A stretch of 45,038 nucleotides of DNA, taken from positions 1 to 45,038 of the IMG/VR virus record IMGVR_UViG_651053023_000003, one strand, 5' to 3'. The stretch comes from a virus (lineage: Duplodnaviria; Heunggongvirae; Uroviricota; Caudoviricetes). Of the stretch, positions 12,000 to 24,321 are shown piece by piece. The position numbers were made by a program, and so were the translations under genes. Under the pieces are notes generated by a model that did not search any database, was not told the origin of the DNA, and saw only the letters and a list, made by a program, of their open reading frames with translations. Numbering within the stretch: the first letter of the stretch is position 1; the number at the start of each line of letters is the position of its first letter.

Positions 12000-12028
12000 G
12001 TTGCTCTGTGTGATAAACGGAGGCACTA

Positions 12029-12262
12029 ATGAGTAATGAACTACTACGCTGGCGAAAAGAGGCTTCTAGTGAGGAATGGAAGCGACTCGCCGCATTAGCG
12101 AATACTTCAGTTGGCTATCTTGATCAGATTGCATATGGGTTTCGAAGAGCTTCCCCAGATAAAGCGAATGCAATCGAAGAAGCCACTCGTAATTTCACGG
12201 GTTATAAACCTGTGAAAAAGGAAAATCTGGTGTTCGTATCGCGTAGAGCATCAGCAGCATAA
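12029..12262 (+). CDS. cro: Cro-like HTH regulator
   Basis: 77-aa ORF divergent from cI, GGAGG Shine-Dalgarno; HTH-like segment TSVGYLDQIAYG; not lambda Cro sequence, call by position. Confidence 0.65.
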   Translation: MSNELLRWRKEASSEEWKRLAALANTSVGYLDQIAYGFRRASPDKANAIEEATRNFTGYKPVKKENLVFVSRRASAA

Positions 12263-12269
12263 GTAACCT

Positions 12270-12315
12270 CGCTCTTTGTAACAACGGACATTCGTCCTAC
12301 GTCGCTGAAAAGCGA
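12270..12315 (+). promoter_or_regulatory. nutR: nutR (boxA CGCTCTTTG, boxB stem-loop TCGCTGAAAAGCGA)
   Basis: boxA consensus-like at 12270-12278 and hairpin at 12302-12315 with the same UGAAAA loop as the nutL boxB. Confidence 0.65.
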
Positions 12316-12400
12316 ATCCCAGAATATCTGACCAACCAAGGCCATATGCGTTTCCACGCATACCTTTCAACTAGCTATTCACTATTGGAAATCATAAGAA

Positions 12401-12700
12401 ATGGAACAAACAAGTTACAGCAAACTATCACAGCGCGACGTTGATCGCGCAGAAACAGATTTACTCATCAACCTGTCAACGCTTACCCAGCGCGGTCTGG
12501 CAAAGATGATTGGCTGTCATGAATCGAAGATAAGCAGAACGGACTGGAGATTTATTGCTTCGGTCCTGTGTGCTTTTGGAATGGCATCAGACATCAGTCC
12601 GATTAGCAGGGCTTTTAAGTATGCGCTTGATGGACTCACCAATAAAAAACGCCCGGTGTGCAAGATCGAGCGTTCTGATCAAATACAAATGGAATTTTAA
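12401..12700 (+). CDS. cII: CII transcriptional activator
   Basis: 99 aa; C-terminus ...LTNKKRPVCKIERSDQIQMEF resembles lambda CII ...ILTNKKRPAATERSEQIQMEF; HTH GLAKMIGCHESKISR. Confidence 0.85.
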   Translation: MEQTSYSKLSQRDVDRAETDLLINLSTLTQRGLAKMIGCHESKISRTDWRFIASVLCAFGMASDISPISRAFKYALDGLTNKKRPVCKIERSDQIQMEF

Positions 12701-12722
12701 CAACATCCAACGAGGTAATTAT

Positions 12723-12995
12723 ATGCGAAACAAAGGCTTTAATCCACCTGATACACACAAAGAAGCTAAGCGTTTGCGCTTCCTTCGTTCCATTGATGAA
12801 AGAACTCAAATCTCTTTTGTGAAAGTTGCCAGAACTGAGCTTCTGAAGGCTGAGGCGAGGGCGTTGCTCCCGTCTCTACCAAAAGAGGAGGGATATACGT
12901 TCATTCCAAACGCATTTCTGGAAAAGCTGCTCAAAGAAGACATATCCGTAAGTCAGTTTAACGATGTTCTTAAGGTCTTTCGTCAAGGCAGGTAG
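12723..12995 (+). CDS. Hypothetical protein between cII and the replication genes
   Basis: 90-aa ORF from the internal ATG of the longer track ORF; co-oriented in the pR operon. Confidence 0.4.
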   Translation: MRNKGFNPPDTHKEAKRLRFLRSIDERTQISFVKVARTELLKAEARALLPSLPKEEGYTFIPNAFLEKLLKEDISVSQFNDVLKVFRQGR

Positions 12996-12997
12996 TT

Positions 12998-13945
12998 ATG
13001 AGCAATACAGCAAAAATCTACGATTTCAGCGCCGCACACGAGCGCAGGAGCAACAGGATGGAGAACCAGAAAACTGGTTACATTCCGTTGTACCGGAGCA
13101 TTCTGAAACAGTCATGGGCGAAAGATGTTTATCTTCGCACCCTGTGGGAAAACCTTCTCCTGAATGCCGCCAGAAAGCCACACAAAGCGAATTTCAAAGG
13201 TCATGAATGGCATCTGCAACCCGGTCAACTGGTTGTGACAGCAGCTGATTTAGGTCTTCAGTTATGCGACAGGCATGGCAAGCCGGCAAGCCGTGATCAG
13301 GTTGAGCGGATGCTTCAGGTTTTTGTGAAAGAGGGGATGATCACCATTGATGGAGAGAAGCAAAAAGGTCGTGTGATCACCATCACGAATTACCATGAAT
13401 ATGCTCAAAAAATGGACAATTCACCCGCACATGAAGCCGCACAAACAACCGCACATGACGCCGCACATGACGAAGCCAGTAATGGCGCGGCTTTCAGCGT
13501 ACATGCCGCACATGAAAGCGCACATGAAGCCGCACAAACAACCGCACATCATGAACAAGAAGGTATTAACAAGAATATAAATAATACCCCCCTACCCCCC
13601 AATGGGGGAGGCGATGGGCAGGTTAAACCTGAACGTCGCAAGGCAGAACGAATCGACTATGAATCCTTCCTGAATGCCTACAACACCGAAGTCGGTGACA
13701 GACTGCCACACGCTGTTGCGGTCAACGAGAAACGCAAACGTCGCCTGAAGAAAATCATTCCGCAACTGAAAACGCCAAACGTGGACGGTTTCAGAGCGTA
13801 TGTCAGGGCGTTTGTGCATCAGGCCAAGCCGTTTTACTTCGGAGACAACGACACGGGCTGGACGGCAGATTTTGATTACCTGCTGAGGGAAGATTCGTTA
13901 ACGGGAGTACGGGAAGGGAAGTTTGCAGACAGGGGGATTGCATGA
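12998..13945 (+). CDS. Replication initiator (lambda O / P22 gp18-like) with internal origin
   Basis: 315 aa; repeat-encoded middle segment [17 protein letters not shown]...[14 protein letters not shown]; stop overlaps helicase start (ATGA). Confidence 0.75.
13422..13555. repeat. Origin iterons (about six copies of CCGCACATGA-core repeats) inside the initiator gene
   Basis: Direct repeats of GCCGCACATGA(A/C)G at about 13425, 13449, 13461, 13506, 13519 and 13543, followed by an AT-rich stretch and C/G tracts (13560-13620). Confidence 0.7.
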
Positions 13946-15275
13946 GACAGGATATCGAAGCGAGCGTTATCGGTGGCCTGCTGATTGGTGGATTAACTCC
14001 AACCGCCAGTGACGTTCTGGCAACGCTTGAGCCGGAAGCGTTTTCAATTCCGCTCTACAGGAAAGCCTTCGAGGTTATCCGCAAGCAGGCGAGAAACAGA
14101 AACCTAATCGATGCGCTGATGGTTGCCGAGGCGTGCGGAGAGGAGCATTTCACGTCAATCCTGATGACCAGCAAAAACTGCCCGAGTGCCGCAAACCTGA
14201 AGGGATATGCCGGAATGGTCGCGGATAACTATCACCGCCGTCTGGTGCTGGAAATCATGGATGAAATGCGTGAACCAATTCAGAGCGGAACCATCGACGC
14301 ATCGAGTCAGGCGATGGATGAGCTTGTAAAGCGTCTCTCAGCCATCAGAAAGCCCCGTGACGAGGTTAAACCTGTACGGTTAGGGGAAATCATCACCGAC
14401 TACACTGACACGCTTGACAGGCGTCTGAGGAACGGAGAAGGGTCAGATACCCTGAAGACCGGAATCGAAGAACTTGACGCCATCACCGGAGGGATGAACG
14501 CAGAAGACCTGGTGATTATCGCTGCTCGTCCTGGTATGGGGAAAACCGAGCTGGCGCTGAAGATTGCCGAAGGCGTTGCAAGCCGCGTTATTCCAGGTTC
14601 TGACGTTCGGCGCGGAGTATTGATTTTCTCAATGGAAATGAGCGCATTGCAGATTGCAGAGCGAAGCATTGCCAACGCCGGGAGGATGTCGGTTAGCGTA
14701 CTGCGAAATCCTGCATCGATGGATGACGAAGGCTGGGCGCGTGTTGCTAACGGCATGAGTCAGCTTGCAGATTTGGATGTATGGGTAGTCGATGCCTCGC
14801 GGTTATCGGTCGAAGAAATACGCTCAATCGCAGAACGGCACAAACAGGAAAATCCAAACCTCTCACTCATCATGGCGGATTATCTTGGCCTGATTGAGAA
14901 GCCGAAAGCAGACCGCAACGACCTCGCAATTGCTCACATCTCCGGAAGCCTGAAGGCGATGGCGAAAGACCTGAAAACGCCTGTTATCTCCCTGAGTCAG
15001 CTTTCTCGCGATGTTGAGAAGCGACCAAACAAACGCCCGACAAACGCAGATTTGCGTGATTCAGGAAGCATTGAGCAGGACGCAGACTCAATCATCATGC
15101 TCTATCGGGAAGCGGTGTATGACGAGAACAGTAGCGCCGCGCCATTTGCTGAAATCATCGTGACGAAAAACCGTTTTGGCTCACTTGGTACGGTTTACCA
15201 GCGGTTCTGTAACGGACACTTTGAACCGCCCCGGAAATCCTGGAGACTAAACTCCCTGAGAAAGAGGTAAACAGG

Positions 15276-15602
15276 ATGACTAAAAATACTCGTTTTTCCC
15301 CCGAAGTCCGTCAGCGGGCGATTCGTATGGTTCTGGAAAGTCAGGATGAATATGACTCACAGTGGGCGGCAATTTGTTCCATTGCCCCAAAGATTGGCTG
15401 TACGCCGGAGACTCTGCGTGTCTGGGTTCGCCAGCATGAGCGGGATACCGGGGGCGGTGATGGTGGGCTCACCAGCGCTGAACGTCAGCGTCTGAAAGAG
15501 CTGGAACGTGAAAATCGTGAACTGCGCCGCAGTAACGATATCCTTCGCCAGGCTTCCGCTTATTTTGCGAAGGCGGAGTTCGACCGCCTCTGGAAAAAAT
15601 GA
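15276..15602 (+). CDS. IS3-family transposase OrfA
   Basis: 108-aa [38 protein letters not shown]... with HTH and leucine-zipper-like region. Confidence 0.85.
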
Positions 15603-16489
15603 TGCCACTGCTGGATAAGCTGCGTGAGCAGTACGGGGTCGGACCGGTATGCAGCGAACTGCATATTGCCCCGTCAACGTATTACCATTGTCAGCAACAG
15701 CGACATCATCCGGATAAACGCAGTGCCCGTGCGCAGCACGACGACTGGCTGAAGAGAGAGATACAGCGCGTATACGATGAAAATCATCAGGTGTACGGTG
15801 TGCGTAAAGTCTGGCGTCAGTTGTTACGGGAAGGAATCAGGGTGGCCAGATGTACAGTGGCACGTCTCATGGCGGTTATGGGACTTGCCGGTGTTCTCCG
15901 GGGTAAAAAGGTCCGTACGACCATCAGCCGGAAAGCCGTTGCCGCAGGCGACCGCGTAAACCGTCAGTTCGTGGCAGAACGACCTGACCAGCTGTGGGTG
16001 GCTGATTTTACTTACGTCAGCACATGGCAGGGCTTCGTCTATGTGGCGTTTATCATTGATGTGTTTGCCGGATACATCGTGGGGTGGCGGGTCTCATCGT
16101 CTATGGAAACGACATTCGTGCTGGATGCGCTGGAGCAGGCGTTGTGGGCCCGTCGTCCGTCTGGCACCATCCATCACAGCGATAAAGGCTCTCAGTATGT
16201 GTCACTGGCCTATACGGAGCGACTAAAAGAAGCCGGATTACTGGCATCAACAGGGAGTACAGGCGACTCGTATGACAACGCGATGGCTGAGAGCATCAAT
16301 GGTCTTTACAAAGCGGAGGTAATACACCGTAAGAGCTGGAAAAACCGTGCAGAAGTGGAACTGGCCACACTAACGTGGGTGGACTGGTATAACAATCGAC
16401 GATTGCTGGGAAGGCTGGGCCATACTCCTCCGGCAGAAGCAGAAAAAGCTTATTATGCTTCCATCGGAAACAATGATCTGGCAGCCTGA
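15599..16489 (+). CDS. IS3-family transposase OrfB (DDE catalytic domain; expressed as OrfAB by -1 frameshift)
   Basis: 296-aa ORF with integrase-core motifs; overlaps the orfA end at the A-rich run around 15590-15603. Confidence 0.85.
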
Positions 16490-16657
16490 GTTCACAGATA
16501 AAACACTCTCCAGGAAACCCGGGGCGGTTCACTTTGTTGCATGTGACCAGGATGAAGCCAGACAGATTTGCACAGCATCAAATGCGCCTGCTGCGCGTGG
16601 CAGACGATATGCACAAGGGGCGGACGTATGACCATCTACATCACTGAGCTAATAACA

Positions 16658-16688
16658 GGGGCTATTTACACAGTAGCCCTTTTTTATT
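16658..16688 (+). terminator. Rho-independent terminator downstream of the helicase gene
   Basis: Stem GGGCTA/TAGCCC with 9-nt loop followed by TTTTTTATT. Confidence 0.6.
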
Positions 16689-16712
16689 GGATTAAGAACG
16701 AGGGGGATCCTG

Positions 16713-16925
16713 ATGGACACCGTTAACGGAATGTGTTCAGACGCACCGCGTGCCAAAAAATGTAAGTGCGGAAAATCACCGACAATATTCGACATGGAGA
16801 ACGGGTGCCAAATCTACTGCGCTAACCACGCTGCTGTGGCGGCCGCGAATTATCGCAGTGCGGTAACGGAGTGGAATAACCTGAAATCTGTTAGAGAGGG
16901 AAGTCATGAAAAAACTAACCTTTGA
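16713..16925 (+). CDS. Lar-family restriction-alleviation protein (zinc ribbon)
   Basis: 70 aa; CKCG...(12 aa)...CQIYCANH zinc-ribbon spacing and C-terminal ...AVTEWNN resemble the Lar family from memory. Confidence 0.5.
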   Translation: MDTVNGMCSDAPRAKKCKCGKSPTIFDMENGCQIYCANHAAVAAANYRSAVTEWNNLKSVREGSHEKTNL

Positions 16926-17322
16926 AATTCGATCCCCAGCACATCAGCAAAACGCTATTCACGCGGTACAGAAAATTCTTCCAGACCCAACCAAACCAAT
17001 CGTAGTAACCATTCAGGAACGCAACCGCAGCATTCGGCAAAATGCACGCCTTCACGCGATGCTATCTGAAATAAGTAAGAAGGCTACATATCATGGGAAA
17101 GCAAGAAATATTGAGTTTTGGAAGGGGTTATTCGTTTCTGGTTGGCAGATTGCAACCAACCAGCACCCTGAGATTATATCAGGGTTAGAAGGTGAGCTAA
17201 TAAACATCAGAGAGAGTACGGCGACTCTATCTGTAAAAAAAATATCCGAAATAATGGACTACATAGAAGCATATTGTGCCATGAACTCAATTCATCTTAG
17301 CGAATGGAGGAATTATGATTGA
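16906..17322 (+). CDS. ninB: NinB (Orf-family recombination mediator), C-terminus altered by the downstream insertion
   Basis: 138 aa; N-terminus MKKLTFEIRSPAHQQNAIHAVQKILPDPTKPIVVTIQERNRS matches lambda NinB from memory. Confidence 0.8.
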   Translation: MKKLTFEIRSPAHQQNAIHAVQKILPDPTKPIVVTIQERNRSIRQNARLHAMLSEISKKATYHGKARNIEFWKGLFVSGWQIATNQHPEIISGLEGELINIRESTATLSVKKISEIMDYIEAYCAMNSIHLSEWRNYD

Positions 17323-17917
17323 GGTTTGGGTAGATATCGAAGGAATTCCATTTTATCAGGTTAGCAATAAAGGAAATTTCAGGTCTATTACGAGGGAAAT
17401 TACAGTAACATCAACCAGACAGAGGCCATATAAGAAAATAATTAATGGCACTAGCGTAAAACCATTCAAGTGCAAGTCGACAGGATATCTTCAAATAAAG
17501 GTATACGGTAAGAAATACAGCGCCCACAGGATAGTTGCGAAAGCATTCTGTACAGGGTTCTGTGATGGCTTGGTAGTTAATCACAAAAATGGGCAAAGAG
17601 ATGACAATAGGGCTGAAAACCTTGAGTGGGTATCACATTCTGAAAACTCAAAGCACGGATATAAACAAAATGGAAGAATACCTATATCGCTAGGTAAATT
17701 TAGTGGTGATCATCCTGCCAGTAAAGCTGTTATTTCTACTGACATGAAAACTGGGGAGGAGGTTTATTATGAAGCAGCTATGGATGCTGTCAGAGAAGGA
17801 TTTGATAGTTCGTCAATTAGTCGTTGCTGTAATGGCGAAAGCTCATATCACAAAGGAAGATTCTGGCGATTTGCAAATGAAACAATGAAAGCGCGATGGG
17901 GAGATCGGGCCGCATGA
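17315..17917 (+). CDS. HNH homing endonuclease (NUMOD4 + HNH_3-type)
   Basis: 200 aa; NUMOD4-like WVDIEGIPFYQVSNKGNFRS and HNH motif HRIVAKAF...NHKNGQRDDNRAENLEW; own GAGGAA Shine-Dalgarno; C-terminal tail KARWGDRAA. Confidence 0.8.
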   Translation: MIEVWVDIEGIPFYQVSNKGNFRSITREITVTSTRQRPYKKIINGTSVKPFKCKSTGYLQIKVYGKKYSAHRIVAKAFCTGFCDGLVVNHKNGQRDDNRAENLEWVSHSENSKHGYKQNGRIPISLGKFSGDHPASKAVISTDMKTGEEVYYEAAMDAVREGFDSSSISRCCNGESSYHKGRFWRFANETMKARWGDRAA

Positions 17918-18441
17918 CTATCAAATCAAATACGCCAGCACACGACAAGGACTGCTGGCAAACGCCGCTTTGGCTTTTTGATGCACTGGATATTGAGTTT
18001 GGATTCTGGCTGGATTCGGCAGCGAGCGACAAAAATGCTTTATGCGCTCACTGGCTAACTGAGGCCGACGACGCGCTCAATTCTGAGTGGGTAAGCCACG
18101 GTGCAATCTGGAATAACCCACCGTACAGCAATATCAGGCCGTGGGTGGAAAAAGCCGCTGAGCAGTGCATACAACAGCGACAGACGGTAGTTATGCTTGT
18201 GCCAGAGGATATGTCAGTCGGATGGTTCAGCAAGGCTCTGGAGAGTGTCGACGAAGTTCGCATTATCACTGATGGACGGATTAATTTTATCGAACCATCG
18301 ACAGGGCTGGAGAAGAAGGGAAACAGCAAAGGCTCCATGCTGCTGATTTGGCGACCGTTCATCAGTCCTCGACGGATGTTTACTACCGTATCCAAAGCGG
18401 CATTGATGGCAATCGGGCAGGGCGTCAGGAGGGCGGCATGA
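17914..18441 (+). CDS. Phage DNA N6-adenine methyltransferase (Dam-type, NPPY motif)
   Basis: NPPY motif ([10 protein letters not shown]); ATG at 17914 overlaps the upstream stop (ATGA); alternative upstream ATG at 17896. Confidence 0.75.
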
Positions 18442-18614
18442 GGCGACAGCGACGAAGTTTCACCGACATCATCTGCGAAAACTGCAAATACCTTCCAACG
18501 AAACGCTCCAGAAATAAACGCAAGCCAATCCCGAAAGAATCTGACGTAAAAACCTTCAACTACACGGCTCACCTGTGGGATATCCGGTGGCTAAGACATC
18601 GTGCGAGGAAATGA
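18438..18614 (+). CDS. ninE: NinE
   Basis: [58 protein letters not shown] matches lambda NinE from memory; ATGA overlap with the methyltransferase gene. Confidence 0.85.
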
Positions 18615-18982
18615 CAATGGATTATTCACAGTTAAGTGATTTTGAAATTAACGTGGCGGTATTCGAAGCCATTCATAACGGATCACCGGATTACAAAGAA
18701 GGTGAGAATGGCGATATGGTGTTTGTCTCATTTGAGGGAGACATTGTAAACGGAGACGCAGTTGAAGTAGAAGTTGAGCGCGGATCCTTTAACCCATGCG
18801 CAAACCCAGCAGACTCATGGCCGATTATTGAAAAATACAGGATTAGCATTATCAATCTCGATGAAGACGAGTGGGGTGCACGCGGTGTGGCCTACTGTAA
18901 ATCTAAGCGAGCTATACATGAAAATCCCCTCCGCGCCGCCATGATTGTCTTTCTCATGATGCAGGACGCCAATAATGCTTAG
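18611..18982 (+). CDS. Hypothetical nin-region protein
   Basis: 123-aa ORF from the ATG overlapping the ninE stop (ATGA), GAGGAA Shine-Dalgarno; acidic protein. Confidence 0.5.
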
Positions 18983-19151
18983 CCCATCCCAATCCATTCA
19001 ATACCAGAAAGAAAGCGTCGAGCGGGCTTTAACGTGCGCTAACTGCGGTCAGAAGCTGCATGTGCTGGAAGTTCACGTGTGCTCCGATTGCTGCGCAGAA
19101 CTGATGAGCGATCCGAATAGCTCAATGTACGAGGAAGAAGACGATGGCTAA
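18975..19151 (+). CDS. ninF: NinF (below the ORF-track length cutoff)
   Basis: 58-aa ORF read directly from sequence: [58 protein letters not shown], matching lambda NinF from memory. Confidence 0.8.
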   Translation: MLSPSQSIQYQKESVERALTCANCGQKLHVLEVHVCSDCCAELMSDPNSSMYEEEDDG

Positions 19152-19710
19152 ACCAGCGCGAAGACGATGTAACCGTAAAAGAGAAGATTTAACTGTTAAA
19201 AGGATATTTGAGTTACTAAGTTTCGATAAATCTACCGGTGTATTTAGATGGAAAGTTCCCACTCAGGGAAGGATAGCATTAAATAGTGTTGCTGGAACTT
19301 TTGATTCCAACGGTTATTCAATGATCATGATTGATGGGCGTAGATATAAAACTCACGTCTTAGTTTTTTACATAACTCATAATCGTTGGCCTGCTGGTCA
19401 AATTGACCACGTTAATGGAATTAGGACCGACAATAGGCCAGAAAATTTAAGAGAATGCCTGCCAATAGAAAATTCAAGAAATATAAGGATCCGAAAGAAT
19501 AGCAAATCAGGTTGCAGAGGAGTTACTTGGCACAAACGACAGAAAAAATGGAATGTTAGGCTAGGTTTCCATGGCAAGAGTAAACACTTCGGATGCTTTG
19601 ATGATCTGGAGTTAGCGGTACTAGTTGCTGAAGAAGCCCGAGATAAGTATTACGGTGATTTTTCCGGCAACGAAAGGAGCACTTATGCGAATCTATCGAA
19701 GGAAATGTAA
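19144..19710 (+). CDS. HNH homing endonuclease (HNH_3 + AP2-type DNA-binding domain) carrying a NinG-like N-terminus
   Basis: 188 aa; starts MAKPARRRC (canonical NinG start from memory) then HNH motif [15 protein letters not shown] and AP2-like [29 protein letters not shown]. Confidence 0.75.
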
Positions 19711-20287
19711 ATGTTGCAATGAATGGTTTATACCAAAATATCAAAATCAATATTGGTGTAATGAGATTTGTGGAACAAAGATAGCACTCGAACGACGAAG
19801 CAAAGAACGCGAAAAAGCGGAAAAAGCAGCAGAGAAGAAACTACGACGAGAGGAGCAGAAACAGAAAGATAAACTGAAGATTCGAAAACTCGCCTTAAAG
19901 CCCCGCAGTTACTGGATTAAACAAGCCCAACAAGCCGTAAACGCCTTCATCAGAGAAAGAGACCGCGACTTACCATGTATCTCGTGCGGAACGCTCACGT
20001 CTGCTCAGTGGGATGCCGGACATTACCGGACAACTGCTGCGGCACCTCAACTCCGATTTGATGAACGCAATATTCACAAGCAATGCGTGGTGTGCAACCA
20101 GCACAAAAGCGGAAATCTCGTTCCGTATCGCGTCGAACTGATTAATCGCATCGGGCAGGAAGCAGTAGACGAAATCGAATCAAACCATAACCGCCATCGC
20201 TGGACTGTCGAAGAGTGCAGGGCCATCAAGGCGGAGTATCAACAGAAACTTAAAAAACTGCGAAACAGCAGAAGTGAGGCTGCATGA
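19685..20287 (+). CDS. ninG: NinG (Rap) recombination-promoting nuclease
   Basis: 200-aa ORF from the ATG at 19685 (AAAGGAG Shine-Dalgarno); ...[24 protein letters not shown]...RSEAA matches lambda NinG from memory. Confidence 0.85.
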
Positions 20288-20949
20288 ATATCTACGAAAG
20301 AATTGATGGCAGCAAATACCGAAATATTTGGGTAGTTGGCGATCTGCACGGATGCTACACGAACCTGATGAAAAAACTGGAGACGATAGGATTCGACACC
20401 AAAAAAGACCTGCTTATCTCGGTGGGCGATTTGGTTGATCGCGGTACAGAGAACGTCGAATGTCTGGAATTAATCACATTCCCCTGGTTCAGAGCTGTAC
20501 GTGGAAACCATGAGCAAATGATGATTGATGGCTTATCAGAGCGTGGAAACGTCAATCACTGGCTGCTTAATGGCGGTGGCTGGTTCTTTAATCTCGATTA
20601 CGACAAAGAAATTCTGGCTAAAGCTCTTGCCCATAAAGCAGAAGAACTTCCGTTAATCATCGAACTGGTGAGCAAAGATAAAAAATATGTTATCTGCCAC
20701 GCCGATTATCCCTTTGACGAATACGAGTTTGGAAAGCCAGTTGATCATCAGCAGGTAATCTGGAACCGCAAACGAATCAGCAACTCACAAGACGGGATCG
20801 TGAAAGAAATTAAAGGCGCGGACACGTTCATCTTTGGTCATACGCCAGCAGTGAAACCACTCAAATTTGCCAACCAGATGTATATCGATACCGGCGCAGT
20901 GTTCTGCGGAAACCTCACATTGATTCAGGTACAGGGAGAAGGCGCATGA
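20284..20949 (+). CDS. ninI: Ser/Thr protein phosphatase (lambda NinI type)
   Basis: 221 aa with metallophosphatase motifs GDLHG, GDLVDRG, GNHE. Confidence 0.85.
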
Positions 20950-21569
20950 GACTCGAAAGCGTAGCTAAATTTCATTCGCCAAAAAGCCCGATGATGAGCG
21001 ACTCACCACGGGCTACGGCTTCTGACTCTCTTTCCGGTACTGATGTGATGGCTGCTATGGGGATGGCGCAATCACAAGCCGGATTCGGAATGGCTGCATT
21101 CTGCGGTAAGCATGAACTCAGCCAGAACGACAAACAAAAGGCTATCAACTATCTGATGCAATTTGCACACAAGGTATCGGGGAAATACCGTGGTGTGGCA
21201 AAGCTTGAAGGAAATACTAAGGCAAAGGTACTGCAAGTGCTCGCAACATTCGCTTATGCGGATTATTGCCGTAGTGCCGCGACGCCGGGGGCAAGATGCA
21301 GAGATTGCCACGGTACAGGCCGCGCGGTTGATATAGCAAAAACAGAGCAGTGGGGGAGAGTTGTTGAGAAAGAGTGCGGAAGATGCAAAGGTGTCGGCTA
21401 TTCAAGGATGCCAGCAAGCGCCGCATATCGCGCTGTAACGATGCTAATCCCAAACCTTACTCAACCCACCTGGTCACGCACTGTTAAGCCGCTGTATGAC
21501 GCTCTGGTGGTGCAATGCCACAAGGAAGAGTCAATCGCAGACAATATCTTGAATGCGGTCACACGTTAG
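20946..21569 (+). CDS. Q: Late-gene antiterminator Q
   Basis: 207-aa [33 protein letters not shown]... essentially lambda Q from memory. Confidence 0.93.
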
Positions 21570-21611
21570 CAGCATGATTGCCACGGATGGCAACATATTA
21601 ACGGCATGATA

Positions 21612-21640
21612 TTGACTTTTTGAATAAAGTTGGGTAAATT
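21612..21640 (+). promoter_or_regulatory. Late promoter pR' with qut
   Basis: -35 TTGACT (21612-21617), 17-bp spacer, -10 TAAATT (21635-21640), as in lambda pR'. Confidence 0.8.
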
Positions 21641-21646
21641 TGACCC

Positions 21647-21840
21647 AACGATGGGTTAATTCGCTCGTTGTGGTAGTGAGATAAAAAGAGGCGGCGCTTA
21701 CTACCGATTCCGCCTAGTTGGCCACTTCGACGTATCGTCTGGAACTCCAACCATCGCAGGCTGAGAGGTCTGCAAAATGCAATCCCGAAACAGTTCGCAG
21801 GTAATAGTTAGAGCCTGCATAACGGTTTCGGGATTTTTTA
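21647..21840 (+). ncRNA. 6S late leader RNA (pR' to tR')
   Basis: ~194 nt between the predicted pR' start site and the tR' terminator, matching the lambda 6S RNA length. Confidence 0.6.
21780..21840 (+). terminator. tR' Rho-independent terminator
   Basis: 10-bp stem ATCCCGAAAC/GTTTCGGGAT followed by TTTTTT. Confidence 0.8.
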
Positions 21841-22237
21841 TATCTGTGCAACAGGTAAGAGCATTCTCCCTTATGGGGCTTGGCTTAAATGCACCGAGTG
21901 CTCTTATCGTTGTGCTGAATTAAGCGAATGCCGGAAGCAGAACCGGATCACCAAATGCGTACAGGCGTCATCGCCGCCCAGCAACAGCACAACCTAAACT
22001 GAGCCGTAGCCACTGGCTATCCTGAATTCATCAGTGATAGTTACGCTGCGGCCTTCTACACATGACCTTCGTGAAAGCGGGTGGCAGGAGGTTGCGCTAA
22101 CAACCTCATGCCGTTTTGCCCGTGCATATCGGTCACGAACAAATCTGATTACTAAACACAGTAGCCTGGATTTGTTCTATCAGTAACCGACCTTATTCCT
22201 AATTAAATAGAGCAAATCCCCTTATTGGGGGTAAGAC

Positions 22238-22561
22238 ATGAAGATGCCAGAAAAACATGACCTGTTAGCCGCCATTCTCGCGGCAAAGGAACAAGGCATC
22301 GGGGCAATCCTTGCGTTTGCAATGGCGTACCTTCGCGGCAGATATAATGGCGGTGCGTTTACAAAAACAGTAATCGACGCAACGATGTGCGCCATTATCG
22401 CCTGGTTCATTCGTGACCTTCTCGACTTCGCCGGACTAAGTAGCAATCTCGCTTATATAACGAGCGTGTTCATCGGCTACATCGGTACTGACTCGATTGG
22501 TTCGCTTATCAAACGCTTCGCTGCTAAAAAAGCCGGAGTAGAAGATGGTGGAAATCAATAA
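22238..22561 (+). CDS. S: Holin S (dual-start S107/S105 type)
   Basis: 107-aa [32 protein letters not shown]... essentially lambda S; Met1-Lys2-Met3 dual start; CCCC-TTATT-GGGG hairpin just upstream. Confidence 0.93.
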
Positions 22562-23021
22562 TCAACGTAAGGCGTTCCTCGATATGCTGGCGTGGTCAGA
22601 GGGGACTGATAGCGGACGTCAGAAAACCAGAAATCATGGTTATGACGTCATTGTAGGCGGAGAGCTATTCACTGATTACTCAGATCACCCTCGCAAACTT
22701 GTCACGCTAAACCCCAAACTCAAATCAACAGCTGCAGGCCGTTACCAGCTTCTTTCCCGTTGGTGGGATGCCTATCGTAAGCAGCTTGGCCTGAAAGATT
22801 TCTCTCCGAAAAGCCAGGACGCTGTGGCACTGCAACAGATTAAAGAGCGTGGCGCTTTACCGATGATTGATCGCGGTGATATCCGTCAGGCTATCGACCG
22901 TTGCAGCAATATCTGGGCTTCACTGCCGGGCGCTGGTTATGGTCAGTTCGAGCATAAGGCTGACAACCTGATTGCAAAATTCAAAGAAGCAGGCGGAACG
23001 GTCAGAGAGATTGAGGTATGA
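22545..23021 (+). CDS. R: Endolysin R (lytic transglycosylase)
   Basis: 158-aa [22 protein letters not shown]... matches lambda R. Confidence 0.93.
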
Positions 23022-23455
23022 GCAGAGTAACCGCGATTATCTCCGCTCTGGTTATCTGCATCATCGTCTGCCTGTCATGGGCTGTTAATCATTACCGTGA
23101 TAACGCCATGACCTACAAAGAGCAGCGCGATAAAGCCACATCCATCATCGCTGACATGCAGAAGCGTCAACGTGATGTAGCAGAACTTGACGCCAGATAC
23201 ACAAAGGAGCTTGCTGATGCTAACGCGACTATCGAAAATCTCCGTGCTGATGTTTCTGCTGGTCGTAAGCGCCTGCAAGTCGCCGCCATCTGTGCAAAGT
23301 CAACGACCGGAGCCAGCAGCATGGGCGATGGAGAAAGCCCAAGACTTACAGCAGATGCTGAACTCAATTATTACCGTCTCCGAAGTGGAATCGACAGGAT
23401 AACCGCGCAGGTTAACTACCTGCAGGAGTACATCAGGACGCAATGCCTTCGATGA
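23018..23455 (+). CDS. Rz: Spanin inner-membrane subunit Rz
   Basis: 145 aa; N-terminal transmembrane segment [18 protein letters not shown] followed by coiled coil; diverges from lambda Rz after ~30 aa. Confidence 0.85.
23217..23402 (+). CDS. Rz1: Spanin outer-membrane lipoprotein Rz1 (embedded in the +1 frame of Rz)
   Basis: Embedded ORF with lipoprotein signal and lipobox ...LVVSAC, proline-rich mature part; exact start uncertain (23217 or 23250). Confidence 0.65.
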
Positions 23456-23799
23456 TAGCGATAATTTTACTCATCATCCTTCACATCTGGCTCTGTAGAC
23501 AGGGTGATGATCACTTCTGGAGTGAATCCAGATTAAACATCTCATTGCTGATGCTTGATATTGAGCATCTGGCGCGCGGTAAGGGGCTGCGTTGAGATAA
23601 GAGCCAGTCATCAAAAACACCAGGATTTAGCCTCGCATTCGCGGGGCTTTTTTACATCTGCAGTAAACAGCGCATCGCAGCGCGTAACAATCCCGAGTCT
23701 TTCAGAAAGCTGAGCCTGAGAACTGCCGTATATGGTGGCGACCATCTCGGGGCGGCTTTTCTGTGCGAACAGGCTCATCTTTCTAAAAGGTAAGACGCT

Positions 23800-24321
23800 A
23801 TGAATATCGTTCCACTGAATTACAAAGGCGAACCTATCCGCTTCAATACGGATGGCTGGATTAATGCCACTGATATTGCAAAACGTTTCGGGAAGCGTCT
23901 GGATCACTGGTTGTCCAACGCTGAAACTCTCGAATACGTTAGAGCTCTGGATGAGGTTTATTCAGGTGAACCATCGAAAATTCTACATACCCGTGATTCC
24001 GGGTATGTAAAAACAAGCAAGGCACGAAAGGACAGGGGAGGCGGAACATGGCTGCACCCAAAGTTATCAGTTGCCTTTGCAAGATGGTGCGATCCGAAAT
24101 TCTCCGTATGGTGCGACCTGCACATTGATAGTCTGCTTCGCGGTGAACTGACTGAGCAGCAGAAATATGAGCAAGCATGTCGCATTCGCGATGACCGGAA
24201 ATCAAAAGCCAGCAATGGGGCAAGAGAGATGGCTCGCTGGCGATGGGATAAGCCGGTTATTGAAGCAAATGTCGAGTACTGGCGCGAGCAACTGCAGCTG
24301 ACTCTCGATATCGCGTGCTGA
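23800..24321 (+). CDS. KilA-N domain protein
   Basis: 173 aa; KilA-N-like motifs ...DGWINATDIAKRFGKRLDHWL... and GGGTWLHPKLSVAFARWCDPKF. Confidence 0.65.
   Translation: MNIVPLNYKGEPIRFNTDGWINATDIAKRFGKRLDHWLSNAETLEYVRALDEVYSGEPSKILHTRDSGYVKTSKARKDRGGGTWLHPKLSVAFARWCDPKFSVWCDLHIDSLLRGELTEQQKYEQACRIRDDRKSKASNGAREMARWRWDKPVIEANVEYWREQLQLTLDIAC

Follow-up and report, generated by a model that had tools for sequence, protein, structure and literature searches.

I-HmuI and I-HmuII, from the Bacillus phages SPO1 and SP82, and the free-standing Seg and Mob endonucleases of phage T4 are the closest mechanistic analogues of the gene that we describe here. It lies in a 45,038-nucleotide (nt) stretch of Caudoviricetes DNA, positions 1 to 45,038 of the IMG/VR virus record IMGVR_UViG_651053023_000003, which we call the window. 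In this window, an open reading frame (ORF) for an HNH endonuclease is found between ninB, also called orf, and the gene for a Dam-type methyltransferase, and its last codons are those of ninB. We conclude that this is probably a free-standing homing gene of the I-HmuI type in the 3' end of ninB, spreading together with a foreign segment of ninB as a single cassette.

I-HmuI lies within a group I intron of a DNA polymerase gene, whereas the window gene is free-standing in the end of ninB. The two enzymes have in common a beta-rich N-terminal region of NUMOD4 type, an HNH beta-beta-alpha-metal motif, and a C-terminal helical, helix-turn-helix (HTH) part with the ending HKG..W/F-R-F/Y. They differ in that identity is about 29%, that Asn89 of the window enzyme stands in place of Asp74, and that the window enzyme has a tail of 9-14 residues derived from its host gene. 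In mixed infections, I-HmuI and I-HmuII reportedly favour the inheritance of flanking markers, as Goodrich-Blair and Shub are said to have found in 1996; this is the behaviour that we infer for the ninB segment linked to the window gene. The T4 endonucleases SegF, SegG and MobE are free-standing, lie between or inside conserved genes, and spread by "intronless homing" with co-conversion of their neighbours; they, too, give linked flanking markers an advantage in inheritance. In these systems the neighbouring allele linked to the endonuclease differs from the endonuclease-free one, and the divergent ninB codons 43-134 of the window fit this pattern. The T4 enzymes differ from the window enzyme in being GIY-YIG or other HNH types, in belonging to virulent T-even phages, and in having start and stop codons of their own; the window gene has a temperate lambdoid host, and its ORF ends on the last codons and the stop of the gene that was invaded.

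Two other described systems join an HNH nuclease to phage proteins of this kind of genome or family. In the P22-like phage epsilon34, gene 31 (eaE::HNH) joins an HNH homing endonuclease in frame to a piece of the gene that it invaded (PMC2629481). There the N-terminal end of an early-left operon gene was captured, whereas the window gene has captured a C-terminal end and its stop; the epsilon34 fusion also resembles the HNH-AP2 cases at ninG, dam and the 5' end of ninB that are described below. The DUF968 proteins of Staphylococcus, Listeria and Enterococcus phages are Orf-HNH fusions (PMC4118853), and, like the window locus, they physically tie a recombination mediator of the Orf/NinB family to an HNH nuclease. 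However, each of them is one polypeptide, in which Orf carries a small zinc-finger HNH at its C-terminus, and they are interpreted as functional nucleases; the window has two proteins, of which the nuclease is a complete I-HmuI-type enzyme with only nine NinB residues fused to it. Published maps of nin regions show "HNH" boxes without comment (PMC4118853), and GenBank and RefSeq label the endonuclease ORF "HNH endonuclease" or "NUMOD4 domain-containing protein". The full-text literature searched contained no description of a ninB-endonuclease fusion or cassette, and no assay of this protein, which is weak evidence as most subscription journals lay outside the scope of the search. The locus is a well-preserved and fairly ordinary case of a known kind of mobile gene, and no new kind of system.

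An endonuclease gene that ends on ninB codons

The locus has the following features, given with their guanine-plus-cytosine (GC) fraction where it is informative.

16906-17322, plus strand: ninB (orf), chimeric and C-terminally shortened, 138 residues; Pfam NinB, 2.2e-40
16906-17031, plus strand: lambda-type ninB codons 1-42, the left flank of the cassette, ending ...QERNRS; 97.9% identical to phage HF4s over 16700-17031
17032-17307, plus strand: ninB codons 43-134 from a divergent lineage; unalignable to HF4s; GC 0.40
17032-17887, plus strand: the cassette, 856 nt, comprising divergent ninB codons 43-134 and the endonuclease body; defined by alignment blocks with HF4s
17306-17311, plus strand: GGAGGA, Shine-Dalgarno sequence of the endonuclease gene, inside the new last ninB codons W-R-N; read directly
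17308-17887, plus strand: endonuclease-specific DNA, 580 nt, comprising Shine-Dalgarno sequence, ATG and body to ...WRFANETM; bounded by ninB codon W134 and the first tail codon
17315-17917, plus strand: I-HmuI-like HNH endonuclease ORF, 200 residues; identified by Pfam, PDB 1U3E, and AlphaFold2 (AF2) with Foldseek
17888-17917, plus strand: leftover native 3' end of ninB, lambda codons K138-A146 and TGA; 26 of 27 nt as in HF4s and in locus L013; GC 0.63
17898-17903, plus strand: GGGGAG, a Shine-Dalgarno-like element for dam inside the leftover tail; read from the sequence
17914-18441, plus strand: Dam-type N6-adenine methyltransferase gene, the right flank; Pfam Dam, 6.4e-65; GC 0.52

This layout confirms every element that an original prediction, made from the letters of the window, had observed. 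The NUMOD4/HNH reading frame that it had placed between ninB and the Dam gene is there (Pfam NUMOD4 1.5e-13, HNH_3 8.2e-12, Dam 6.4e-65). It had also proposed that the shortened ninB end, ...SEWRNYD, doubles as the ribosome-binding site and start of the endonuclease gene. Indeed, the ninB product ends ...NSIHLSEWRNYD (that is, ...HLSEWRNYD) at an in-frame stop at 17320-17322, with GGAGGA just before and the endonuclease ATG within the last three ninB codons. The same 8-nt overlap between ninB and endonuclease, with the same Shine-Dalgarno layout, is found in Salmonella phage SEN22 and in other, E. coli-type loci. At the far end, the proposed overlap of the endonuclease stop with the methyltransferase start can be read directly at 17914-17917: TGA at 17915-17917 and the dam ATG at 17914 together form ATGA. 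The endonuclease body has no stop codon and instead reads in frame through nine leftover ninB codons to the ninB TGA. Its NUMOD4 domain spans residues 3-63 and its HNH domain residues 69-112; a C-terminal NUMOD/HTH-like region covers residues 145-186 and is followed by the added tail. Base composition changes at the same place, from 0.40 in the ninB part of the cassette and 0.386 in the endonuclease to 0.63 in the tail and 0.52 in dam.

The nine-codon tail is native ninB DNA. The original prediction had named KARWGDRAA as the likely conserved C-terminus of NinB, and the 146-residue NinB proteins of lambda, HF4s, SFAD3, SH19PTE6, HK106 and others do end ...LALEWKARWGD(R/K)AA; the HK106 terminus is ...GDKAA, and that of P22 is ...ECKARFGDAA. 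At the nucleotide level, the 27-nt tail differs by a single base from the insertion-free HF4s and L013, and 98.7% identity runs on through dam. The insertion-free junction of HF4s reads CTCGAATGG followed directly by AAAGCGCGATGGGGAGATCGGGCAGCATGACTATC, and the window junction reads ...ACAATG followed by AAAGCGCGATGGGGAGATCGGGCCGCATGACTATC. Global alignment of the window with HF4s falls into three blocks: 16700-17031 (332 nt) is 97.9% identical, 17032-17886 (855 nt, against 284 nt) has no meaningful alignment, and 17887-18441 (555 nt) is 98.7% identical. It follows from this three-block structure that the right-hand homology has the nine tail codons at its left edge. A chance resemblance to KARWGDRAA, or an ORF that is not a real gene, has next to no probability. 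The shortness of the tail (nine residues), and nothing else, speaks for it; against it stand the match of 26 of 27 nt with insertion-free ninB ends, continuous with the 98.7% identity into dam, the occurrence of the same junction in 32 independent loci, domain E-values of 1e-13 to 1e-11, and the 501 homologues returned by a search at E<=1e-3. We rejected this reading on the canonical NinB ends, the HF4s alignment and the shared junctions.

Insertion-free alleles exist. The ninB-dam junction is uninterrupted in phages HF4s and mEp506, in several "Lambda_ev" phages and in many E. coli prophages, including SFAD3, and the ninB-ninE junction is uninterrupted in HK106 and HK446. The flanks of HF4s, mEp506, SFAD3, HK106 and HK446 are about 98% identical to the window, and in HF4s, L013 and HK106 homology resumes at the same nucleotide in the dam and ninE contexts. 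There is, then, a presence/absence polymorphism at one precise site, with the window, LD39-1 and ETEC1720 as carriers and HF4s, SFAD3 and HK106 as non-carriers. The original prediction had proposed this alignment with uninterrupted ninB-methyltransferase phages, of which HF4s, mEp506 and SFAD3 are examples. It could have failed on either of two points, a canonical NinB that ends differently or a lack of insertion-free alleles anywhere; canonical NinB ends in KARWGDRAA, and such alleles were found. These sequence comparisons support the interpretation of the ninB end as the footprint of a homing endonuclease gene.

Excising exactly 17308-17887 (580 nt = 3x193+1) returns the tail to the ninB frame and so restores ninB into KARWGDRAA. 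This favours an endonuclease encoded by an intron or intein, with ninB restored by splicing across the 580-nt insert, a reading to which we give almost no credence. A scan of 16700-18200 against Rfam matched no family, group I and group II introns included, at E<=1. The ORF fills the 580 nt from 7 nt past the left junction, with no room for a ribozyme core, and ninB has its own in-frame stop at 17320-17322. These three observations effectively rule out the intron, and an intein is excluded because the frame of the endonuclease differs from that of the upstream ninB. Since there is no Rfam intron match and the ORF fills the insert, we take the endonuclease gene to be free-standing.

The protein is a full-length relative of the I-HmuI-type (NUMOD4-HNH) homing endonucleases, and its activity is predicted from its sequence and modelled fold. 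In addition to NUMOD4 and HNH_3, Pfam gives the I-HmuI NUMOD-like family at 8.5e-4, below the curated cut-off. Residues 55-186 match residues 36-170 of the 174 in PDB 1U3E, which is I-HmuI (E 4.7e-14). An AF2 model built with 33 homologues as input has a mean predicted local distance difference test score (pLDDT) of 84.5, and for this model Foldseek found 1U3E as the only significant PDB fold match (E 2.9e-11, probability 1.00, 194 columns, about 29% identity). By Pfam and Foldseek, the modular, elongated DNA-binding architecture is present, with a NUMOD4-type region at the N-terminus and a NUMOD/HTH module at the C-terminus. H90, N102 and N111 are invariant across the 33 homologues and align with H75, N87 and N96 of I-HmuI, the general-base histidine and the conserved asparagines of its HNH motif. 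I-HmuI terminates four residues past the equivalent of W184-R185-F186, distant homologues unlinked to ninB stop 1-4 residues past W[RK][FY] at a TAA or TAG of their own, and the last ten residues of the model have a mean pLDDT of 50. For these reasons we consider the C-terminal extension foreign to the native enzyme. The gene does not belong with the terminase-associated HNH class of cos phages, since it is placed in the nin region and its DNA-binding modules are of I-HmuI type.

A cassette of endonuclease and foreign ninB segment

The ninB gene next to the endonuclease is itself a chimera. Codons 1-42 are lambda-type, and residues 43-134 are about 39% identical to lambda NinB. In the phage collection, tblastn found this divergent segment at 99% identity or more in 63 records and at 80-90% in two (Salmonella phage SEN22), the next matches being at 44% or less; the endonuclease gene lies beside it in every phage record listed or inspected. 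In complete E. coli genomes (n=5,426, of which 1,875 match some part of the region), the divergent ninB segment occurs at 79 places in 76 genomes, and the endonuclease body likewise at 79 places in 76 genomes. Because ninB codons 43-134 belong to a foreign NinB lineage that accompanies the endonuclease, the difference between the alleles is an 856-nt cassette replacing 284 nt. We therefore reject simple insertion as a full account, since the HF4s alignment has 855 nt against 284 unalignable nt and no clean 580-nt insert. Of the original proposal of an insertion inside the last ninB codons, the free-standing endonuclease gene and the fixed right junction stand, and the simple insertion falls.

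The boundaries of the cassette are fixed. On the left, the boundary at 17031/17032 directly follows the NinB RNRS codons in all E. coli-type and SEN22 loci, and it does so even where the left flank is unrelated (L025 and L026). RNRS is the start of the most conserved motif of the Orf family, RSxxQN, and the boundary there could reflect either the only available homology patch or the target of the endonuclease. To see the flanks in their variety, we surveyed E. coli-type loci in phages, in genomes and on IMG/VR contigs, 34 in all. The 856-nt cassette is 98.5-99.8% identical to that of the window in 32 of them, and the remaining two have a 1-nt indel in ninB. (These are L047 and L052, in which the indel lies upstream of an intact endonuclease gene; in another locus, L053, the endonuclease is 5'-truncated.) The left flanks, ninB codons 1-42, are of at least three types: MKKLTFEI, MRKLTFEL (about 84% nucleotide identity) and the unrelated MKCVKYHL. 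The right flanks are of at least four types, namely dam, two ninE variants, a ninC-like gene and one other, and the junction of cassette and tail falls at the identical nucleotide in all surveyed loci. Synonymous variants in the tail track the downstream gene, not the endonuclease gene. A GATCGG tail goes with dam in cassette-positive (window, LD39-1) and cassette-negative (HF4s, SFAD3, SH19PTE6) loci alike, and a GACA(G/A)G tail precedes ninE or ninC whether the cassette is present (ETEC1720) or absent (HK106, lambda). This pattern is what break repair in an insertion-free recipient would be expected to produce; recombination at short homologies, with no break involved, would fit it as well.

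The homing explanation, which we favour, would work as follows. The endonuclease gene has its start codon and ribosome-binding site within the shortened ninB and ends on the native ninB TGA. This layout would leave the next gene's ribosome-binding site intact, and its translational coupling too, so the insertion would not disturb the operon. During lytic growth beside an insertion-free lambdoid phage or prophage, the enzyme would nick or cut the lambda-type ninB. Repair would then copy the cassette, using as homology arms ninB codons 1-42 on one side and the short tail with any shared downstream gene on the other. The foreign ninB segment would be carried along by co-conversion and would give the recipient a NinB that is resistant to cutting and still functional. 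Indirect support for such biased inheritance comes from the near-identity of the cassette amid many flank types and from the complete linkage of endonuclease and foreign ninB segment.

The main rival is passive recombination at short homologies, in which the module of ninB codons 43-134 and HNH gene is spread only by homologous or Red-mediated exchange at its boundaries, the endonuclease being inactive or irrelevant. We consider this unlikely. Mosaicism is high in the nin region, where genes have many alternative neighbours; the two cassette boundaries are the only homology patches between the two ninB lineages, and their sequences are conserved (the RNRS motif on the left, the linker on the right); ends in ...AA and stop on GCNGCATGA are common to many nin-gene junctions; and frameshifted copies of the endonuclease exist (the E. 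coli proteins P0004 and P0006, in which the frameshift follows residue ~146). All of this fits passive exchange. It does not account easily for an endonuclease that is intact and under strong purifying selection despite saturated synonymous sites, with invariant residues in its catalytic motif. Moreover, right-hand homology amounts to just about 30 nt when downstream genes differ, yet the cassette is found before at least four downstream genes with an identical junction and at least 98.5% identity, and the whole endonuclease clade occupies the same position relative to ninB.

The age of the association was gauged by Nei-Gojobori comparison of the window with SEN22, as the proportions of synonymous (pS) and nonsynonymous (pN) differences. 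For ninB codons 1-42, pS is 0.17 and pN 0.021; for codons 43-134 they are 0.73 and 0.074, and for the endonuclease 0.79 and 0.134. By this measure the cassette is anciently diverged, with saturated synonymous sites, both of its genes are under purifying selection, and the flank is recent. The sequence relationships also indicate that the association of ninB with the endonuclease is ancient and clade-wide, and not a recent event in the window phage. Among 80 IMG/VR loci binned by endonuclease identity to the window, a NinB-family gene ends at the endonuclease start in 26 of 28 loci at 97% identity or more, in 26 of 34 at 44-78%, and in none of the 18 at 39% or less. Five others in the middle bin lie behind a DUF1367 gene. 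In these loci (L057, L054, L056, L058 and L064; 63-68% endonuclease identity) the clade is found behind DUF1367 and not ninB. In L057 (IMGVR_UViG_3300011612_000001, ~990-2085) a remnant of a 933W-type ninB start (MKQTYLLRNEAIRNNA...) lies just upstream, as if DUF1367 and the endonuclease had replaced ninB.

Downstream of the ninB-linked endonuclease, metagenomic and genomic relatives have dam, ninE, ninD, an Ead-like gene or unknown genes. In the ninB-linked lineages that were read (the window, SEN22 and L008-L010), the endonuclease ORF continues into what is left of a NinB-like C-terminus. This remnant is AA in SEN22, where homology to P22 begins at GCCGCATGA; it is ASRLEIEWATRWGKS in L008 and ...AEIKQWIGYSGDKNRSAA in a Pantoea prophage. 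Most members of the clade end in an ATGA overlap with the next gene, and a few (Klebsiella-type, Aeromonas-type) have a stop of their own.

A second rival is a functional partnership, in which nuclease and shortened NinB would have co-evolved as a module of two genes, and not as parasite and host gene; the module would be the split counterpart of the DUF968 Orf-HNH fusions, serving for example as a nick-and-load initiator of recombination or as a weapon against competing lambdoid phages. Here the nuclease could nick its own or a competitor's DNA and NinB could load the recombinase. We regard this as very unlikely. In its favour, identities to the window of NinB (residue 43 to the end) and of the HNH protein fall in parallel across four loci (0.86/0.78, 0.76/0.69, 0.70/0.64 and 0.63/0.55); the two genes are perfectly linked in E. 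coli; their frames overlap and are translationally coupled across the clade; and fusions of Orf-family domains to HNH nucleases are documented (PMC4118853). Nevertheless, the cassette is present in only 76 of the 5,426 E. coli genomes, and many more have a lambda-type ninB without a partner nuclease. The same NinB sub-lineage has insertion-free members (L019-L021), the five DUF1367 loci carry the same endonuclease clade, the architecture is that of a classical homing enzyme, and the HNH of DUF968 is of a different, zinc-finger type.

Several observations weigh against homing by an active endonuclease. Close relatives of this NinB sub-lineage, at 57% identity or more, all appear to be linked to the endonuclease, and a purely selfish element would be expected to be patchier. 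No insertion-free copy of the divergent ninB segment was found in the phages or complete E. coli genomes searched, and no insertion-free close relative (at least 57% identity) in a set of 5.8 billion proteins. Five relatives of 146 residues were considered as candidates for an intact NinB and rejected: the Pantoea locus L009 reads into the endonuclease gene in another frame, and the other four share its kind of ending. Identity has to fall to about 53-55% before true insertion-free members of the sub-lineage are met (L019-L021); these retain C-terminal ends of their own, that of L019 being the lambda-tail-like ...LSIKKWSARWGA. Fixed boundaries with variable flanks could also stem from ordinary or Red-mediated recombination without the endonuclease. 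Asn89 (VVNHKNG), nearly invariant in the clade, occupies the position of I-HmuI Asp74, the metal ligand preceding the catalytic histidine; the asparagine could still bind metal. Finally, tail lengths vary among lineages (2, 9, 15 and ~19 codons), a range that would fit either a single old insertion that later eroded or a number of separate joins.

Shortened NinB and translation of the operon

The shortened NinB matches lambda Orf (PDB 1PC6) with an E-value of 1.3e-33, residues 1-130 aligning with 1-126. The conserved RSxxQN channel motif is present and reads RSIRQN. As the protein stops at SEWRNYD, it lacks a complete C-terminal alpha5 helix (lambda R132, W137, R140, W141). Lambda residues K138-A146, which include R140 and W141 of this flexible helix, are missing, and KARWGDRAA is found on the endonuclease instead. 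Point mutations in the C-terminal helix of lambda Orf cause no more than a modest loss of DNA binding (PMC4118853). The truncated protein seems to work, given the low pN of the divergent ninB segment.

Within the tail, the GGGGAG element lies 10 nt upstream of the dam ATG. With the codons that are retained, the next gene probably keeps both its initiation and its coupling. The tail of SEN22 is only two codons long, and there a purine-rich stretch at the 3' end of the endonuclease gene itself (GAGAGGATG) serves instead. Endings of this sort recur in the region. Many nin-region genes, among them ninB, dam and ninG, end in ...AA and stop on a GCNGCATGA-type junction that overlaps the next start (17908-17917, 18432-18441 and 20278-20287 of the window). 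Most endonuclease homologues share the ending, among them one in Pseudomonas aeruginosa (L024, ~2085-2094) that does not adjoin ninB. The junction is possibly a conserved linker for coupling or recombination.

Further endonuclease genes and an insertion sequence

A second, unrelated endonuclease gene lies at 19144-19710 on the plus strand (HNH_3 4.2e-11, AP2 below threshold) and is the mirror image of the ninB case. It opens with 29 nt (MAKPARRRC) that match the 5' end of lambda-type ninG exactly. The ninG gene begins again, from an ATG of its own at 19685, and reaches 20287, passing first through a divergent, very AT-rich stretch (GC 0.32) and then into lambda-type sequence. This arrangement was found in only four phage records, such as the Stx1 phage AU6Stx1, and most have an uninterrupted ninF-ninG junction.

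Similar captures are found elsewhere. In E. coli SH19PTE6 (L012; NZ_CP073768.1, 1450-2504), an HNH-AP2 gene between an intact, 146-residue lambda-type ninB and dam opens with the first nine codons of dam (MTIKSNTPA), and dam restarts with a divergent N-terminus. The same locus and that of ETEC1720 (L014) have a third HNH gene upstream of ninB. Two further loci (L026 and L025, in the NCBI draft assemblies GCA_014386915.1 and GCA_043913285.1; 1412-3000) have endonuclease genes on both sides of ninB. Upstream, an HNH-AP2 ORF begins with ninB codons 1-32 (MRKLTFEL...TKPI) and continues as endonuclease, and ninB restarts as MKCVKYHL...; downstream lies a NUMOD4-HNH gene with a KARWGDR(A/V)A tail. 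Both original ends of ninB persist there only as extensions on the two endonucleases.

Terminus capture, that is, in-frame fusion to the first or last codons of the invaded gene (ninB at either end, dam, ninG) together with a replacement copy of the disrupted part, may be how these endonucleases settle. A reading that combines a co-evolved nuclease-NinB pair, as a split Orf-HNH, with nin regions shaped more broadly by lineages of terminus-capturing endonucleases seems to us distinctly improbable. Because capture recurs at ninG, dam and the ninB 5' end, gene conversion driven by endonucleases may be an under-appreciated contributor to nin mosaicism.

The window also contains an IS3-family insertion sequence at 15276-16489 on the plus strand, with overlapping orfA (15276-15602) and orfB (15599-16489). 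It lies between a helicase gene (13942-15270) and the region upstream of ninB; related genomes annotate an "IS3 family transposase" at this place, and the element resembles the IS629 known from enterohaemorrhagic E. coli. Among the complete E. coli genomes in the collection, none covers 80% or more of window positions 12000-24000, the best being UMNK88 with 78% in eight pieces. The mosaic of insertion sequence, ninB cassette, dam and ninG cassette is therefore unrepresented among those genomes.

Overall, with its matched insertion-free alleles, the locus is a clear natural case of how a homing gene can settle in a compact phage operon with coupled translation and cause no polar damage. It also shows that some of the variety among ninB/orf alleles in lambdoid prophages, Shiga-toxin ones included, is linked to a mobile nuclease and not to selection for recombination.

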